From Candidatus Aenigmatarchaeota archaeon (lineage in GTDB: Archaea; Aenigmatarchaeota; Aenigmatarchaeia; Aenigmatarchaeales; JACQIB01), in NCBI GenBank assembly GCA_046760225.1, contig JBHIDR010000003.1, positions 1 through 46,537 on the forward strand: DNA of 46,537 nucleotides. The letters run 5' to 3'. The first letter of the stretch is position 1. Every line of letters starts with the position of its first letter. Below, one piece after another: positions 6,001 to 15,000 of the stretch. Position numbers: made by a program.

Positions 6001-9000
6001 TTTATCGGCGACCTATCCTCCTTCTTCTCGTCTAGATACCTGCCGAGCTCCCCCATGAGCTCATGGCTACATGTCGGCCTTGACTTGTCCATCTTATTGA
6101 GGATGTTGCATATTATCTTATCAACACCTTCAAAGTTGGTCTCAGGCTCCAGAGAATCATAAATGCGATTGAGGCCCTGCCTGTATAGCTCCTCGTCAGT
6201 GATGTTTCCTGGGTCCTTGTAGTGCGCATAACCTGCTGACTCAATGAATCCGTGGGACATGAGGGCTCCTGTGGAAACGACCGCATTGACCATGCCATTG
6301 TCTATCATGTGGTCTATAACATAGTTCATCTTTCCTATTGTCATTGCACCGCTCAGCGTGAGCACCTTGAAACAGTTCTTGTCCTCGACCATGTCCACAA
6401 GAACATTAACAGCGTCTCCTACGGCCCTGCCGCCGAAAGCTGTCTTGCCCTGTGCCCTTGTCATGTCGTAGAACGAGTTGATATTATTGATGTCTAGTGT
6501 CTCCAGTTTCTCCAAGTTGCTTGTATCAACCTTCTTGTGCCTCAGATATCTGTCATCCTTTCCCCTCTTCTCATCCATTTTATCGTTAAATTAATGTGCC
6601 TGAAAAAATTTAAAACCCATACCCAGGTAATCTTTAAATACTTTCTAAGCAAGGTTCTCTAAAGAAAGGATGACAAGATGAACTTATGAAATGAGGTGAT
6701 TTGATGGTAGAACAGGAAAAGGTTTTACAGGCTGTTGAGCTTGCAAAAAGCACAGGAAAGGTAATAATAGGAACCAATGAGGCAACAAAGGCTGTTGAAA
6801 GGGGGGTTGCAAAACTCGTGGTTATTGCTGATGATGTGGACCCAAAGGAGGTCATAATGCACCTTCCACCGCTCTGCAATGAGAAGAAGATACCGCTTGC
6901 GCACGTGAATGCCAAGCAGGAGCTCGGAAGGGCAGCAGGAATTGATGTTCCAACAGCTGCTGTTGCAATCATCGAGGAAGGAGAGTCAAAGAAGATAATA
7001 GATGAAATAGCCAAAGAGAAGGAATGATCTGAATGCCAGCACCAACTGATGCAGTTGCAGCAGAGGTAGTACAGGTCCTTGGAAGGACAGGAGTAAAGGG
7101 AGTTACGCAGGTAAGATGCAAGGTACTTGAAGGCAATGATGCAGGCAAGATACTCATGAGGAACGTGCTGGGGCCTGTGAGAGTAGGGGACATGCTCATG
7201 CTCAGGGAAACAGAGATGGAATCAGCTGGAGGCATGGAACCAAGGCGATAAACATGGCAAAGTGCAGCTTCTGCAAGATAAATGTTGAACAGGGCACAGG
7301 AAAGATGTTTGTGAGGAACGACGGCAAGATATTCTACTTTTGCGGTTCCAAGTGCCAGAAGAACATGCTCATGCTCAGAAGGGTCCCGGAAAGGCAGAAC
7401 TGGATAACAAAAAAGAAAAAGACCAAGAAAACCTAAAGCCTTTCCTCCAATAACTTCTCAGTAAGGGAGCGCTTCCTTTTCTTAGCTGTTTTTTTGTTTG
7501 GCTTTAGGCCTGCCTTTTTTAGGGCAATTTCCCAAGAACCGAATCTTTTTCTATAAAGATACTGGTTTGGTATGGACTTGTCTGTATTTAGTTCTCCTTT
7601 TAGTGGTGTTCTTCCGAGCTCTTCTGCTTTTTTCCTGAGGAAATCAAGGAGTTCTTGATCAGTGTATTTCTTTTTGTACACCCTCATATACGGTTCCAGG
7701 CCTGCTTCCTTTACTGCATTCTTCCAAGAGCCAAATCTCTTGTAATAAACACCTGGGTATGGCATAGAGTCATCCTTAATTACTTCTTCTATAGTTGGTG
7801 TTCTTCCGAGTTCTTCGGCTTTATCTTTAAGAAGCTCTAGCAGTTCCTCGTCTGTGTAGTCCTTTCGCTCACAATTGATATCCAGACCTGCTTCTTTTAA
7901 AGCCTTGTTAAAGGAGCCGAACCTTTGATTATAAGTATGTGCACTTGGTATGGACTTGTCCTTGTTCATTTCCATTGTGGTTGGTGGTCTTCCAAGCTCC
8001 TTTGCCTTTTCCTTAAGAGCTTTAATGAGCTCTTCGTTTGAGTATTCTCGGTATTTTGATTCTAATCCTGCTGCTTTTAAGGCACTGTTCCAGGAACCAA
8101 AATGTTTACAATAAGTATTTACACCTGGCATGTTTTTGTCTGTTTCTATTTCTCTTGCAGTTGGTGCTCTACCCAGATCATCTGCCTTATGCTGGAGAAC
8201 TTCAATAAGCTTCTCTTGTGTATAATTATGTATTTCTAAGCATGCTTCTTCTAGGGCATTGTTCCAAGAGCCAAATTTTCTCATATAGGTACTTGAACGT
8301 GGCATGGATTTGTCTCTGTCTATTTCTCTTTTACTCGGCGTCTTGCCCAGCTCCTTGGCTTTGTTTTGTAAGAGCTCGATGAGCTCTTGTTCCGAATATT
8401 CGTGTTTAAAATCTCTATTTAATTCTATACCTGCTGCTTCAAGGGCTTTGTTATAGGAACCAAACCATTTTATGTAGGTAGACGGATTTGGCATTGACTT
8501 GTCCGCTTTTATATCTTCTGTAGTCGGTGTCCTGCCCAGTTCTTCTGCCTTTTTCTGAAGATATTCTATGAGTTCTTCCTTTGAATAATATTCACGGTTC
8601 CTGTCCAAGCCTGCTTCTTTCAGGGCGTTGGTTAAGGAACCAAACCTGTACCGATAAGTAGTTGAAGATGGTATTGATTTGTCTGCAGTTATTTCTTTTT
8701 GGGTTGGTGTTCTACCCAGTTCTTTTGCTTTTTTCTTGAGAAGCTCTAGTAGTTCCTGATCTGAATAATATTCCTTATTAACATTCAAACCTGCTGCTTC
8801 CAGGGCCTTGTTATAAGAACCGAATGTTTTTGTGTAGATATATACAGAAGGTATGTCTTTGTCCGCGTTTACTTCTCTTCTAGTGGGTACTCTGCCTAAC
8901 TCTTCTGCCTTCTCTTGTAGTTTCTCGATAAGATAGTCATCAGTATATTTTTCACTCATAATCACCACTCCTTTTTATCTCCAGCTTCTTCTCGGGGTTG

Positions 9001-12000: not shown

Positions 12001-15000
12001 CTAGGCCTGCCGCATCTAGTGCCTCGTTCCAAGAGCCGAACCTGTCTTGATAGGTTCTTCCAGATGGGAGAGAGCCATCCTCTTCCATTCCTCTTTGGGA
12101 GGGTGTTCTGCCCAGCTCCTTGGCTTTGTTCTGGAGGAGCTCGATTAGCTTTTTATCCGTATACCTGCCCTTTTTAACATTGATATCTAAACCTGCCTCC
12201 TTGAGGGCATTATTGTATGAGCCAAATCTTCTAAAATAAAGAGCTGCACTAGGTATTGACTTGTCCCCAGCTATTTCCTCCACAGTGGGCGTCCTGCCCA
12301 GTTATTCTGCCTTTTTCCTTAGGGCTTCTATTAGCCCCTCCTTTGTATATGATTCATTCGGCTCAAGGCCTGCCGCCCTTAAGGTTTCGTTCCAAGAGCC
12401 AAATCTTGTGATATAAGTGGCTGAATGTGGGATGGACTTGTCCTGGTTTACTTCTGTTTTTGTAGGCAGTTTTCCTAATTTTTCTGCTTTTCTTCTTAAT
12501 GGTTCAAGAAGTTCTTCACCTGTATAACTGCCTTTTTTGCTTATTTCCAGTCCTCCTGCTTTTAGCGCGTTATTATAGGAACCAAATCTTCGACAATAAA
12601 CACTTGCAGATGGCATGGAGTTGTCTTCGTTTACCTCTTTCTGGGTCGGTGCCCTGCAAAGTTGTTCGGTTTTTTCCTGGAGTTTCTGGATAAGGTACTC
12701 ATCAGTGTATTTCTTCGGCTGTTTTTTCATGAATAGAATTAGGACCGAAAAGCTCTTAAGTGTACAAGCATTTAAAGATTACTTTCTTATTGATTTGTAT
12801 GAAAGATGCAAGAAAAAAGCTAGAAGAGGAAAAACAGGAGATTGAGAATAAACTGAAGAGGCTTGACGAGTATGAAGCCCTCAAAAGCGCATATAATATT
12901 ACCATGGAAAAGCTCGAGGAGATGGAAAAGGAGCTTGTCACAGACGGGATTGAAATAGACCCGATCTTTTACAAGGCTGGAAAAAAGAAAGAGGAGCCAG
13001 CAGAGAAGCCTAAGAAAAGGAAACCTAAAAAAAGGAAGGAAGAAAAGAAAAAGAGGACGTACAGGAAGGTTAACTTTGACCATGTCGAAGTTATTCAGAC
13101 TGCTGAGAAGCTCATGAAAGAAGGAAGGGCTGTTACTGTGAGCATGATTATGGAAGAAATGGGCTTTGAGGGCCATAACGAGGCAAGGACAGTTATTCAT
13201 TCAACACTGGAGCTGCGTGAAGCAGGATATGAAAAAAGGACACTATGGTCATATGCATGGCCGAGCAGCACTTTCCATGTTTATCAACCAAAGGGAAAGA
13301 GGCTTCCGTTCGTGCCTCTGAGGTTGCCTGTAAAGGAATACAAAAAAATGCTAAGAAAATCAAAGAAAATGAAACTGCCGAAAAAGTTTGACAGGAAGGA
13401 ATTCTACAAGATTCTCAGGGACAATATGGAAATAGACCACAGGGGCTCTGTGGGTGCAATACCATCCCTCCTCGAGGACCTTGTCTATGAGGGCTACATA
13501 AAGGACCTTGGCAAACAAACCTACAGGCTGAAGAAAAAGGCTTAAGAGGGAATGGTATGGAGGTGCTAAGGAGATTCAAGACAACAGAGAGCACCATGTG
13601 CTCATGTCCCCCTAGATATGCCATCAATACCTATTCTGCATGCTCTCATGGCTGTTTTTACTGCTATGGCTCGCGTTTCTGGAAGACAGAAAGGCCAAGG
13701 AAAAGGGAGGTACTGAGGTACCTTAAGAAAGATGCGAAAAAGAAGAGGAGAAAACTGCCCGTGTCCCTGAGCCCAATTGTTGATCCCTATACGCCTGAAG
13801 AGAAGAGATACAGGGTCACAAGGGGCGTACTGGAAATACTGCAGAAAAACAATTACCCTATCTGCATAATGACCAAGTCAGACCTTGTTGTCAGGGACAG
13901 GTACCTGCTAAAAAAAGCTGATTCCACTGTATCATTCTCCATAACAACCACTGACAAGGAAAAGGCAAAGCTCATAGAGCCAAGAGCGCCTTCTCCTGAG
14001 AAAAGGATACGCGCAATGAAGACGCTTTCCAAATATACAACTGTCACAGCAAGGATACAGCCGCTCATACCATATTTCAACAACAGCAGCGAGGACATAG
14101 AGGCAACCATAAGTGAGCTTGACAGGGCCGGGGTCAAGCACACAACATCGGCTGTATTAAGGATTACCAGTGAGTCCTGGCCAAAGCTCAAGAAAGTGCT
14201 GCCAAGAGCAAAGGAGGTAGAAAAAATATTCTTTGAAGAGCGCGACAGGCGAGCATGGTACTGGTATGCACCGAAGAGGTACAGAAGGGACAACATGAAA
14301 AGAGTGGCTGAAATCGCAAAGGACCATGATATGAGCTTTGCATGCTGCAGGGAGGGTTTTGGCTGGCTGAACACAGGGATTTGTGATGCCCAGGGCTTTC
14401 TTGACTGTTTCAAAAAGCAGAAAAAGCTGGACGAGTTCTGAATTATTTAAATACTCTAGTTTGCAAGAATTAACAAGTGAGTATTATGGCAATTAGATCA
14501 CCTATCGTGGCAACTCTTGGACACTCAATCTGATTGAGCCAAAAATGTTGACCACGGTAAAACAACTCTATTAGATAAAATTAGAGGTACTGCTATCGTA
14601 GCTAAAGAAGCAGGTGGTATAACTCAAAGTGTAGGGGCCACGTTTATACCTGCAGATACAATCAAAAAAATATGTGGTGAACTTCTAGAAAAAATGAAAA
14701 TAAAGATAGATATACCTAGCTTATTGCTAATCGATACGCCTGGGCATGAAGCATTCACATCAATCCGAAAGCGTGGCTCAAGTATTGCAGATTTGGCTAT
14801 ACTTGTTATTGACATAAATGAGGGCTTCAGGCCACAGACAGATGAAAGCCTTGAATTTCTCAAGGAGTTCAAGACACCTTTCCTTGTAGCTGCAACAAAA
14901 ATAGACAGGACGCCTGGCTGGTTCCCTTCTCCAGGAGCATGCTTTTTTGAAAGCATTGAAAAGCAGCCTGAGCATGTTAAGGAGGGGGTTGACAAGGCCA

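Follow-up and report, generated by a model that had tools for sequence, protein, structure and literature searches.

Repeat arrays as putative DNA-targeting subunits of a lineage-restricted methyltransferase on a genomic island of an Aenigmatarchaeota archaeon

In type I restriction-modification systems a separate specificity subunit, HsdS, aims the HsdM methyltransferase (MTase), and alternative specificity subunits are possible. TALE, zinc-finger and PPR readers, and the NUMOD/I-TevI-type modules of homing endonucleases, are built from small modules in tandem. The PF18780 repeat is another such module, found in proteins that NCBI names 'homing endonuclease associated repeat-containing protein' (Bacillus plasmids, haloarchaea), which, like the arrays described here, mostly consist of the array only. 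A search of the full-text literature found no published function for any PF18780 member; the one article retrieved has the family just as an entry in a table on modelling (PMC8078820). SauUSI contains a comparable unit: its residues 618-669 form a subdomain built from four short helices directly behind the SF2 ATPase, described as part of a coupler rather than as a DNA binder (PMC7913695). Among MTases, mad2 is the predicted DNA methylase of MADS (10.1101/2023.03.30.534895).

The window analysed here comprises 46,537 nucleotides of contig JBHIDR010000003.1 (GCA_046760225.1); its host is a tiny hydrothermal-vent archaeon of the DPANN (Aenigmatarchaeota-type). Between rpl24e and infB, a 7-kb segment (7433-14441) has been inserted, which carries on the minus strand an MTase flanked by two arrays in the order B-MTase-A, with the stop of A abutting rpl24e (Table 1). 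At the same site in G001, a genome of the same genus, this segment is missing, which counts in favor of the reading given below, and another, unrelated gene is present. We assign a probability of about 0.5 to the joint reading that the segment is a strain-specific accessory island and that A and B are putative detachable DNA-targeting subunits of the MTase. Arrays of the kind that relatives carry fused in cis exist here as separate genes. The remainder of the island comprises an ORF without matches in Pfam or NCBIfam searches, whose comparison with the coiled-coil neighbors of the MTases in G148 gave a probability of 8% (hhalign), and a radical SAM gene. The radical SAM protein resembles the PA0069 and Rv2578c families with scores under their cut-offs, and shares 39% identity along its entire length with the radical SAM gene beside the G148 MTase pair (E 2e-73); G001 and G002 have copies at other locations, with 33-36% identity over part of the length.

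Table 1. Features of the island and of the related array on contig C4.
Feature	Position	Strand	Description
Array gene A	7433..8968	-	8 PF18780 repeats + C-terminal tail; 511 aa; Pfam 541 bits, 8 stretches
Tail of A	7436..7471	-	RSLTEKLLEERL; 12/12 residues identical to tail of B
MTase	8952..11315	-	787 aa (783 aa as P0001); Pfam class-I MTase families, 31-48 bits
Active-looking SAM-binding domain	9759..10151	-	aa 389-519, motif VLDLGSG; Pfam; invariant residues include L401, G404, G406, D464
Degenerate N-terminal copy of MTase fold	10701..11105	-	aa ~71-205, without glycine-rich SAM loop; BLASTP
Spacer, B to MTase	11316..11380	-	65 nt; A/T-rich TATA-like stretch TTTATAAGG...TATATATTT, read from sequence
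Array gene B (g00163 + g00162)	11381..12730	-	one frame, 7 repeats, tail as in A; 449 aa without stop
Tail of B	11384..11419	-	RSLTEKLLEERL; 12/12 residues identical to tail of A
g00162	11381-12283	-	300 aa; PF18780 308.2 bits, 5 stretches
g00163	12302-12730	-	142 aa; PF18780 137.1 bits, 2 stretches
261-aa ORF	12760..13545	+	N-terminal coiled coil + basic linker; divergent from B; no family assigned
Radical SAM protein	13557..14441	+	right end of island; Radical_SAM + DUF1848
Third array	C4:35431-36090		3 repeats; 219 aa; PF18780 169.9 bits, 3 stretches

Both array genes are intact. The likely ATG of A (8959, giving the 508 aa of P0002) lies 5 nt before the MTase stop, so that the two genes share 8 nt, and gene A is translationally coupled to the MTase. 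The TATA-like stretch ahead of the MTase may be a promoter. In B, one TAA (12302-12304, minus strand) interrupts the frame within repeat 3 (...KAE*LGRTPT), and a PF18780 match of 69.8 bits runs across it. This stop is confined to the window's own assembly, which counts against the targeting reading; in the contigs of all four public runs (one study), position 12304 is C, not A, at full depth, so that the codon is GAA (Glu) and B is an intact protein of 449 aa and seven repeats in those assemblies. The first-pass annotation suspected that g00163 and g00162 were one broken gene; they are a single frame, unbroken in the public assemblies, and the 17 repeats in four genes become 18 in three (8 + 7 + 3). 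Its observation that these arrays are nuclease-free holds, with no nuclease domain in A, the MTase, g00162 or g00163. The common tail, previously given as 11 residues, is real but 12 residues long, and is identical at every position, against ~48% identity for the repeat ahead of it. Seven of its 12 codons differ between A and B, by 9 nt in all, and every change is synonymous; the tails are under purifying selection. In an AF2 model of A, the tail falls within the terminal helix (492-510) at pLDDT 53-63.

Of 58 aligned repeat columns, 20 are conserved at ≥80% and ten are hypervariable (entropy > 2.5 bits; columns 1, 10, 24, 25, 28, 29, 36, 37, 40 and 41), a revision of the about 28 invariant or nearly invariant columns and four variable patches described earlier. 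Eight of the ten lie in helices 2 and 3 in the pattern i, i+1, i+4, i+5. The four helices of 15, 6, 8 and 7 residues per repeat recur in our models, in which gene A forms eight four-helix units (AF2, mean pLDDT 86.8) and a single repeat reaches pLDDT 92.7; the arrangement between repeats is undefined (pTM 0.38), in line with the earlier caution over inter-repeat geometry. Foldseek against the PDB again gave nothing at E ≤ 0.001 and only weak LexA, sigma, HipB and TetR rows, and full-length rows to PPR10 (TM 0.15) are meaningless. The best solved fold match is SauUSI (PDB 7clg; residues 617-668, Z 6.4, rmsd 1.8 Å, 52 of 58 residues aligned), whose four-helix subdomain is present in single copy rather than in tandem and is 12% identical to the repeat, with no match at the sequence level; fusions in which a PF18780 repeat comes after a helicase recur in nature, an order like that of the SauUSI ATPase and its subdomain. 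After SauUSI, 44 of 50 rows are titled transcriptional regulators, mostly TetR-type N-terminal domains (Z 4-5.3). These models and matches indirectly support an HTH-like four-helix module. Counted against DNA targeting are the empty Foldseek result at E ≤ 0.001, the position of all these fold matches under the tool's chance level for small helical models, the description of the SauUSI subdomain as a coupler, and the mildly basic isoelectric points of the arrays (8.9 and 9.2; per-repeat net charge -6 to +5). Like TALE, zinc-finger, PPR and NUMOD proteins, the arrays are tandems of small modules with variable residues gathered on one face of two helices; unlike TALE-type readers, they lack a fixed superhelix, and identity between their repeats is no more than 37-68%, which leaves no nearly invariant scaffold in which one or two residues could form a code. 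Neither a TALE-like "programmable code" nor the proposal of a new programmable-looking repeat is therefore supported; the repeat is already catalogued as PF18780.

Across databases, the partners of the repeat are HNH nuclease, SF2 helicase and MTase, and its neighbors are DNA ligase and TFB-core genes. Helicase families are listed for 20 of the 120 top relatives, and in G246 a helicase is followed by a single repeat; two-repeat genes adjoin an ATP-dependent DNA ligase in two genomes. HNH is listed in the precomputed Pfam column for 5 of the 120 best relatives, with HNH-like ends in ~14 by eye. Nuclease-free arrays, earlier thought unusual, are thus the majority form of the family, and the array-only architecture is not new; what distinguishes these arrays from other PF18780 proteins is that two of them flank one MTase and have a common selected tail. 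Within the phylum, PF18780 exceeds its cut-off in 9 of 371 genomes and reaches E ≤ 0.001 in 13 (G000 included), and it is absent from all six genomes of the same GTDB family; it is rare, as reported, the earlier figure having been 1.4%. Among plasmid records 109 of 72,556 contain it, and among phage records 6 of 50,697.

The MTase carries one class-I SAM MTase domain, as annotated before (~389-519 in 787-aa numbering). Its residues 60-225 align with residues 385-570 (E 2e-9, 24% identity, 148 columns; BLASTP), an alignment that begins past motif I. Relatives match only residues ~332-642, with 86 proteins at E ≤ 1e-3 and 12 at ≤ 1e-10 (exhaustive HMMER); named members come from Aenigmatarchaeota MAGs only, and 10 of 371 phylum genomes carry the subfamily at E ≤ 1e-15. 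New here is that this MTase represents a small Aenigmatarchaeota-only subfamily, several members of which bear N-terminal PF18780-like or other HTH arrays. A scan of the 15 proteins most closely related to the MTase core revealed fusions of related arrays to related MTases: P0124 (987 aa) has ~8 long-variant repeats (PF18780 65 bits) and P0126 a 28.4-bit match, each N-terminal to the same MTase, P0129 combines one such repeat (by eye) and an HTH array (HTH_23, 51.7 bits) with the MTase, and a G337 protein joins a 52.3-bit match to it. In P0124, P0126/P0210, P0129 and P0207, the MTase core shares 22-24% identity with ours over ~240 residues (E 1e-14 to 6e-21). These proteins hold the array in cis, in a longer repeat variant, whereas here the arrays are genes of their own that end in a docking-type tail, and the N-terminus of the MTase is occupied instead by a second, degenerate MTase fold. 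The functional link between arrays and MTase posited earlier is thereby supported indirectly, by the cis fusions, the overlap of A with the MTase stop and the selected tails. DPPY/NPPY and PCQ are motifs of DNA MTases; [DNS]PP[YFWH] and PC[QH] are absent from the whole protein, which matches just generic small-molecule, protein or RNA-type families, all under NCBIfam cut-offs. This suggests that the substrate may not be a DNA base and counts against the targeting reading, as do the absence of the MTase core from ten further PF18780 loci sampled in the phylum and the lack of free-standing arrays around the G148 MTase pair.

Taken together, the fusions (of Rosetta-stone type), the Aenigmatarchaeota-only subfamily, the B-MTase-A order, the A/MTase overlap, the identical tails with synonymous differences, the intactness of both arrays, the HTH-like fold, the DNA-enzyme partners of the repeat and its variable columns on helices 2 and 3 support the targeting reading. 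The core of the island would be a split, array-guided methyltransferase, whose catalytic subunit is the lineage-specific class-I enzyme with its degenerate and then its active-looking copy of the fold. A and B would be strings of eight and seven independently folded HTH-like modules on flexible linkers; helices 2 and 3 would touch DNA with their variable faces, and A and B would act as alternative specificity subunits, docking on the MTase via their common C-terminal helix. DNA binding, docking and the thing methylated are what we infer. Such a system would work like type I HsdS/HsdM, with alternative subunits aiming one enzyme. Unlike type I systems, this locus has no HsdS, HsdM or HsdR homology, and its MTase lacks an N6-adenine motif.

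A and B might instead belong to a mobile island as independent DNA-binding proteins with several HTH units each (such as regulators, partition or nucleoid proteins) that do not work with the MTase and adjoin it only because accessory genes accumulate at an insertion hot spot, of which the unrelated gene at the rpl24e/infB site in G001 could be a sign. Most PF18780 arrays elsewhere have no adjoining MTase (Bacillus and Halobacterium plasmid contexts and the ten sampled loci of the phylum), and the third array pairs with a TFB-core gene. The cis fusions, the overlap of A with the MTase stop and the flanking of one MTase by two paralogues with a selected tail nevertheless make this reading unlikely. 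It is decidedly unlikely that the repeats are not DNA readers at all, serving as protein-protein couplers or scaffolds, as RNA-binding proteins that guide the MTase to rRNA or tRNA, or as substrates of a protein MTase. The SauUSI coupler, an MTase domain of a type typical of RNA, protein and small-molecule enzymes (with weak PrmC and HemK2 rows), the place of the block between rpl24e and infB, and relatives of the MTase that adjoin Pop5 (by eye; G337, G055) or lie within a ribosomal-protein operon (G081) point that way. However, every enzyme that the repeat has elsewhere as a fusion partner or neighbor acts on DNA (HNH, ResIII helicase, DNA ligase, TFIIB), 44 of the 50 structural rows represent DNA-binding HTH domains, G337 and G055 are one family and count once, and the MTase gene runs opposite to the ribosomal genes both here and in G081.

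An anti-virus or anti-plasmid system of restriction-modification logic, with the arrays as sensors or markers of DNA, the MTase labeling self and the radical SAM protein or an unseen partner as effector, seems improbable. The MTase does match PADLOC 'mad2' (54.7 bits, E 1.8e-15), a radical SAM gene accompanies it in two loci, and the distribution is patchy and island-like; yet this score is no higher than those for generic Pfam MTases, no further MADS gene, nuclease or ATPase was found in the island, and the arrays have no PADLOC match. That the arrays arose by decay of homing endonucleases, with loss of an HNH domain, as the first-pass annotation feared, is very improbable. The name of the Pfam family and the minority of relatives that end in HNH suggest it, but PF01844 has no six-frame match in the genome (83% complete), the stops of A and B, which abut rpl24e and lie 65 nt from the MTase, leave no room for remnants, and both arrays have well-formed repeats, a selected tail and the majority architecture of their family.

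The third array starts at an ATG that shares bases with the stop codon of a TFIIB-core gene of 197 aa. Its pairing with that gene had been recognized, although it was counted as a fourth array; it is the third, and lies on C4 outside the window, whose own positions 35431-36090 fall inside rpoA''.

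Three genes of this genome consist of tandem PF18780 (HNH_repeat) units, membership being defined as a Pfam profile match above the gathering score of 26 bits: genes A and B, which lie on either side of a methyltransferase gene in the window, and a third array on C4, another contig of the same assembly. A, both pieces of B and the C4 gene all pass this score, and a six-frame search of the genome returned 18 matches of 54.8-81.1 bits each. The arrays described in the first-pass annotation are thus real, although its tally of 17 repeats in four genes becomes 18 repeats in three. 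The two ORFs of B form one reading frame, AAG GCA GAA TAA CTG GGC AGG ACG CCC (KAE*LGRTPT), in which the TAA falls in the third repeat and is bridged by a single 69.8-bit match in the six-frame search. At position 12304, all four public runs, which come from one hydrothermal-vent metagenome study that may include the source sample, carry C instead of A at full depth, so that the coding-strand TAA becomes GAA (Glu); no indels relative to the window are reported in their contigs over the 8 kb at 7000-15000. In those assemblies B is therefore an intact 449-aa, seven-repeat protein: the earlier suspicion that its two parts are one gene was correct, but that gene does not appear broken.

Coordinates of the features discussed
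Feature	Sequence	Position	Strand	Size and annotation
Island	window	7433-14441		
Gene A	window	7433-8968	-	511 aa with GTG start, 508 aa with ATG start at 8959; PF18780 541 bits, 8 stretches
Methyltransferase gene	window	8952-11315	-	787 aa
Gene B, two ORFs	window	11381-12283 and 12302-12730	-	PF18780 308.2 bits, 5 stretches; 137.1 bits, 2 stretches
Third array gene	contig C4			219 aa, 3 repeats; PF18780 169.9 bits, 3 stretches
Deoxyhypusine-synthase-like gene	window	5460-6578	-	
infB P-loop region	window	14486-14560		22-nt insert at 14525-14546
rpoA''-like ORF	window	35206-37758	+	850 aa
Cas4/Csa1 gene	L013 (C4)	2434-3423	+	164.5 bits, over cut-off
ORF at the rpl24e/infB site	L033 (G001)	4467-5624	+	385 aa, no Pfam family
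Paralogous methyltransferase locus	L050 (G148)	5448-14373		
TFIIB-repeat protein	L067 (G236)	5242-7665	+	807 aa
Helicase with one PF18780 unit	L066 (G246)	5050-7074	-	674 aa
Two-repeat PF18780 gene and DNA ligase	L056	6872-9206		
Two-repeat PF18780 gene and DNA ligase	L069	3249-5504		
Protein with one PF18780 unit	L009 (G039)	1486-2643	+	385 aa

The annotation had also called the arrays nuclease-free, and this holds: Pfam lists no nuclease family in A, B or the C4 array gene, and PF01844 (HNH) has no match in six frames of the whole genome, itself 83% complete, while 10 of 14 control genomes were positive. The proteins thus lack the nuclease domain in the same protein that marks an HNH homing endonuclease, and the caveat that they might be decayed homing endonucleases falls away with the genome-wide result. 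Within the single length band searched, A has 842 relatives at E <= 0.001, and family composition was taken from the best 120 of these, two of which are the window's own proteins. Five of the best 120 list PF01844, 20 list helicase families and 10 list LAGLIDADG_3, while most list PF18780 alone plus spurious rows; about 14 end, by eye, in a Cys/His HNH-like motif. With HNH in so few of the best 120, nuclease-free arrays are the usual form; they are already catalogued, and NCBI has a name for them. By eye, 18 of the same 120 (P0012, P0030, P0035, P0039, P0053 and 13 more) share a C-terminal segment of the form '...(E/D)YVV(V/I)G..LPADIHI.WE.R....LF'.

Arrays of this kind are widespread among haloarchaea, Bacillus, CPR bacteria and DPANN archaea, and PF18780 is present in 109 plasmid records, from Bacillus, Clostridium and haloarchaea, as well as in six phage records. 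Two annotated array contexts that we inspected are mobile-element-like, and neither has a methyltransferase adjoining the array. Within the phylum PF18780 exceeds its cut-off in nine of 371 genomes, and in none of the six genomes of the same GTDB family; the other carriers in the phylum have 1-3 repeats each, versus 18 here, and a locus search seeded with protein A alone returned one locus. Full-text searches turned up no functional study of PF18780 arrays; the one paper they retrieved, PMC8078820, has the family in a table of modelled repeats.

All 18 units can be aligned gap-free across 58 residues, at 37-68% pairwise identity, with 20 of the 58 columns at least 80% conserved and 10 hypervariable (columns 1, 10, 24, 25, 28, 29, 36, 37, 40 and 41). 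Units in A and B do not follow a collinear order: A7-B5, A2-B6, A6-B3 and A1-B1 pair best. An AlphaFold2 model of one repeat, for which the remaining repeats served as alignment (pLDDT 92.7, pTM 0.74), bears out the four-helix scaffold proposed earlier, its helices spanning residues 4-18, 24-29, 36-43 and 46-52. Helices 2 and 3 thus hold eight of the ten hypervariable columns, whose i, i+1, i+4, i+5 spacing is predicted to place them on one face of each helix. The full-length A model, built from 35 natural homologues (mean pLDDT 86.8, pTM 0.38), comprises eight confident four-helix units with a per-domain pLDDT of about 90, joined by linker blocks at 65-72 and ending in a helix at residues 492-510 (pLDDT 53-63). 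We read this model as beads on a string and not a solenoid.

A DNA-binding HTH domain of the tri-helical TetR-N or LexA type would be expected to superpose on solved HTH structures well above background. Foldseek against the PDB returned nothing at E <= 0.001, its weak rows comprising LexA-DNA (E 1.9), sigma factors, HipB and TetR regulators. In VIA, which is independent of Foldseek, the top match was to SauUSI residues 617-668 (Z 6.4 over 52 aligned residues, rmsd 1.8 A), and 44 of the 50 rows listed are titled transcriptional regulators, mostly TetR-family N-terminal domains (Z 4.0-5.3), values that according to the tool lie within chance for small helical models. The matched SauUSI segment corresponds to a subdomain built from four short helices directly behind the SF2 ATPase, as set out in the part of PMC7913695 on the coupler, and fits the recurrent natural fusion of helicases to PF18780 repeats. 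A viral structure library gave nine rows with probability 1.00, TM 0.79-0.92 and 19-42% identity, and LexA_DNA_bind (Pfam) scores 47.3 bits in sum, with no single stretch passing. PDB searches with A and the repeat profile found no solved structure related by sequence; their rows were dismissed as designed helical repeats and a sigma factor at E 0.2 only. The generic helical repeats that Foldseek returned for full-length A, including PPR10, were given no weight (TM 0.1-0.15). In NCBIfam, A residues 425-475 align to positions 185-236 of TIGR04096, the bacterial 'DNA phosphorothioation-associated putative methyltransferase' family, at E 9.6e-8 and 31 bits against a cut-off of 150; that family may contain a PF18780-like unit.

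The methyltransferase has a single class-I SAM methyltransferase domain at residues 389-519 (Pfam). Searched exhaustively with HMMER, 1.84 billion representatives yielded 86 relatives at E <= 0.001 and 12 at E <= 1e-10, all matching within residues 332-642, with no relatives of the first 330 or last 145 residues. A homologue search with the whole protein returned only the protein itself, and the ESM Atlas gave no usable match to its C-terminus (TM about 0.3). The 12 strongest relatives align to residues about 343-642 and share invariant columns, and those close relatives that bear a name are proteins of Aenigmatarchaeota MAGs. We define a subfamily by a match over about 300 residues, covering pre-methyltransferase helices, core and post-core helical segment and thus reaching beyond the 120-residue Rossmann core; on sequence grounds the protein belongs to this array-linked Aenigmatarchaeota subfamily. 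At E <= 1e-15 the core turns up in 10 of the phylum's 371 genomes, and at E <= 1e-8 in one of 60 near relatives. The protein carries no array of its own; instead, a degenerate second copy of its methyltransferase fold, which begins after the SAM loop, occupies residues about 71-205 (E 2e-9).

DNA amino- and C5-methyltransferases carry the catalytic motif (D/N/S)PP(Y/F/W) or PCQ. A regular-expression search of all 787 residues found neither PCQ nor any (D/N/S)PP(Y/F/W) form such as DPPY or NPPY, and its Pfam rows are confined to Methyltransf_11/12/23/25/31, MTS and one weak cap-methyltransferase entry, with no match to the N6_Mtase, N6_N4 or DNA_methylase families. All NCBIfam rows are far below their cut-offs. 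In PADLOC the protein scores 54.7 bits against mad2, no better than generic Pfam methyltransferase models. In the part of 10.1101/2023.03.30.534895 that covers it, mad2 is a predicted DNA methylase of the MADS system; that system combines mad2 with other mad genes, whereas no other protein of the island matches a mad model.

The link between arrays and methyltransferase proposed by the first-pass annotation gains independent support. Among the 15 closest relatives of the methyltransferase core, P0124 (PF18780 65 bits) has about eight longer-variant repeats fused to the N-terminal side of this core, P0126 joins two repeats to it (28.4 bits), P0129 has one longer-variant repeat (by eye) and a string of HTH domains (HTH_23, 51.7 bits), and in P0127 three HTH-like units are recognisable by eye only. 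Genome copies show the same arrangement: PF18780 scores 52.3 bits in the G337 protein and 20.6, below cut-off, in a 765-aa protein of G148. In the window, gene A starts 5 nt before the methyltransferase stop, giving an 8-nt overlap, while B is separated from the methyltransferase gene by 65 nt that include an A/T-rich, TATA-like stretch. The last 12 residues of A and B are identical. Seven of their 12 codons differ, by nine nucleotides, all synonymous, and the repeat preceding the tail is only about 48% identical, which shows selection on the peptide and not recent copying. With custom repeat and methyltransferase-core HMMs, the G337 fusion was the only array found at methyltransferase relatives, and 10 further PF18780 loci from the phylum gave no methyltransferase core.

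DNA binding by the repeats is plausible from their fold and the company they keep, and we give about even odds (roughly 0.5) that the locus is a split form of an array-methyltransferase enzyme with two alternative targeting subunits. A fuller version appears doubtful: A and B would be interchangeable subunits that read sequence and attach to a single, pseudo-dimeric methyltransferase via their common tail, the variable faces of helices 2 and 3 would set the target, and the same module family would elsewhere aim nucleases, helicases, a DNA ligase and a TFB-core. One methyltransferase would thereby gain two long, composite DNA targets, and the locus would exemplify a natural, general system of multi-HTH arrays as targeting adaptors, re-aimable by module swapping. 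The earlier description of a programmable-looking repeat is not supported by comparison with TALE-like arrays. In these, the repeats are near-identical apart from one or two code positions and pack into a regular superhelix, whereas the present units are 37-68% identical, with 10 hypervariable and 20 conserved columns out of 58, and the predicted A model has low overall confidence (pTM 0.38) and low-confidence linkers.

The locus nonetheless provides one of the clearest testable hypotheses for PF18780 arrays, namely that a free-standing array aims an enzyme, because fused and split array-methyltransferase pairs exist, a candidate docking peptide is under selection and two paralogous arrays can be compared. 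If true, the hypothesis would explain why this module is found on so many different DNA enzymes and would add a natural multi-domain DNA-targeting scaffold; if false, the arrays would still be accessory proteins of mobile islands, of an ordinary DNA-binding kind.

In the window, rpl24e and infB flank the island, which is missing from that site in G001, a genome of the same genus. There the order is GluRS, L7Ae, S28e, L24e, an unrelated ORF on the other strand and aIF5B, whereas between L24e and aIF5B the window has A, the methyltransferase gene and B on the minus strand, then, on the plus strand, an ORF of 261 aa and a gene for a radical SAM protein. The site resembles a hot spot for insertions. 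The position, the absence from G001, the missing terminal repeats and the lack of a nuclease bear on a second mark of HNH homing endonucleases, insertion in or beside a conserved target gene with evidence of homing. Neither direct nor inverted terminal repeats were found at the island ends, nor any integrase or compositional break, its G+C content being like that of its surroundings; sigma-70 and terminator scans, both ill-suited to archaea, stayed at shuffle level. Over its full length the island radical SAM protein shares 39% identity (E 2e-73) with one that in G148 lies beside two paralogous subfamily methyltransferases, while the copies of G001 and G002 are located elsewhere and match more weakly. 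The G148 locus reads radical SAM, coiled-coil, 765-aa methyltransferase, coiled-coil, 626-aa methyltransferase (opposite strand), coiled-coil and NurA, its three coiled-coil proteins being paralogues of 31-38% identity. The 261-aa ORF was rejected as their kin (hhalign probability 8%, no visible relation). Between GluRS and L7Ae the window also carries a deoxyhypusine-synthase-like gene that is absent there in G001 and only 22-32% identical to copies in five same-family genomes; it may represent another accessory insertion or else a xenologue.

On C4, outside this window, the ATG of the array gene overlaps the stop of a 197-aa TFB-core gene, which upholds the pairing with a TFIIB-core gene described earlier; the tail and neighbour of this array differ from those of A and B. 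Transcription factor B comprises a Zn-ribbon, a B-reader and two cyclin repeats, whereas the C4 protein has the two cyclin repeats only (PF00382 82.1 bits, 2 stretches), covering positions 119-302 of the 312-position NCBIfam TFIIB profile. Two longer TFB-like frames occur elsewhere in the genome. A Cas4/Csa1 gene lies 1.4 kb upstream of the pair, with a gene between them that by eye resembles a ZIP-type metal transporter. The G236 protein combines a TFIIB repeat (46.7 bits) with a C-terminal MarR/HTH_24 wHTH and shows faint PF18780-like signals only (six-frame E 0.001); it is a possible, weakly indicated fused counterpart of the C4 pair.

The ResIII/Helicase_C protein of G246 continues into one PF18780 unit at 623-659 (26.3 bits), the same order of helicase and four-helix unit as in SauUSI. 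In two genomes, a small gene with two PF18780 repeats (110 and 103 bits) is the direct same-strand neighbour of a gene for ATP-dependent DNA ligase. The G039 protein has one unit at 6-61 (38.5 bits), followed by metallophosphoesterase-looking motifs (GDxxDN, GNHE and HTHNP, by eye).

The window's infB (aIF5B) is interrupted inside the P-loop, where MAIRSPIVATLGH is followed by a 22-nt frame-shifting insert and then VDHGKTTLLDKIRG; deleting the 22 nt restores GHVDHGKT. Contigs from each of the four public runs contain the insert, without any reported indel; G001 infB lacks it. The predicted RNA fold (exon-exon helix, 4-bp helix UUGG-CCAA, 3-nt bulge ACA, hairpin) reaches -22 kcal/mol (z -3.4, none of 200 shuffles as good) and resembles a relaxed bulge-helix-bulge intron. 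The split infB of G003 was rejected as an intron, its break being a run of N. Finally, the rpoA''-like ORF contains an intein-like insert, with Intein_splicing at 33.5 bits on a fragment against a cut-off of 35.8.
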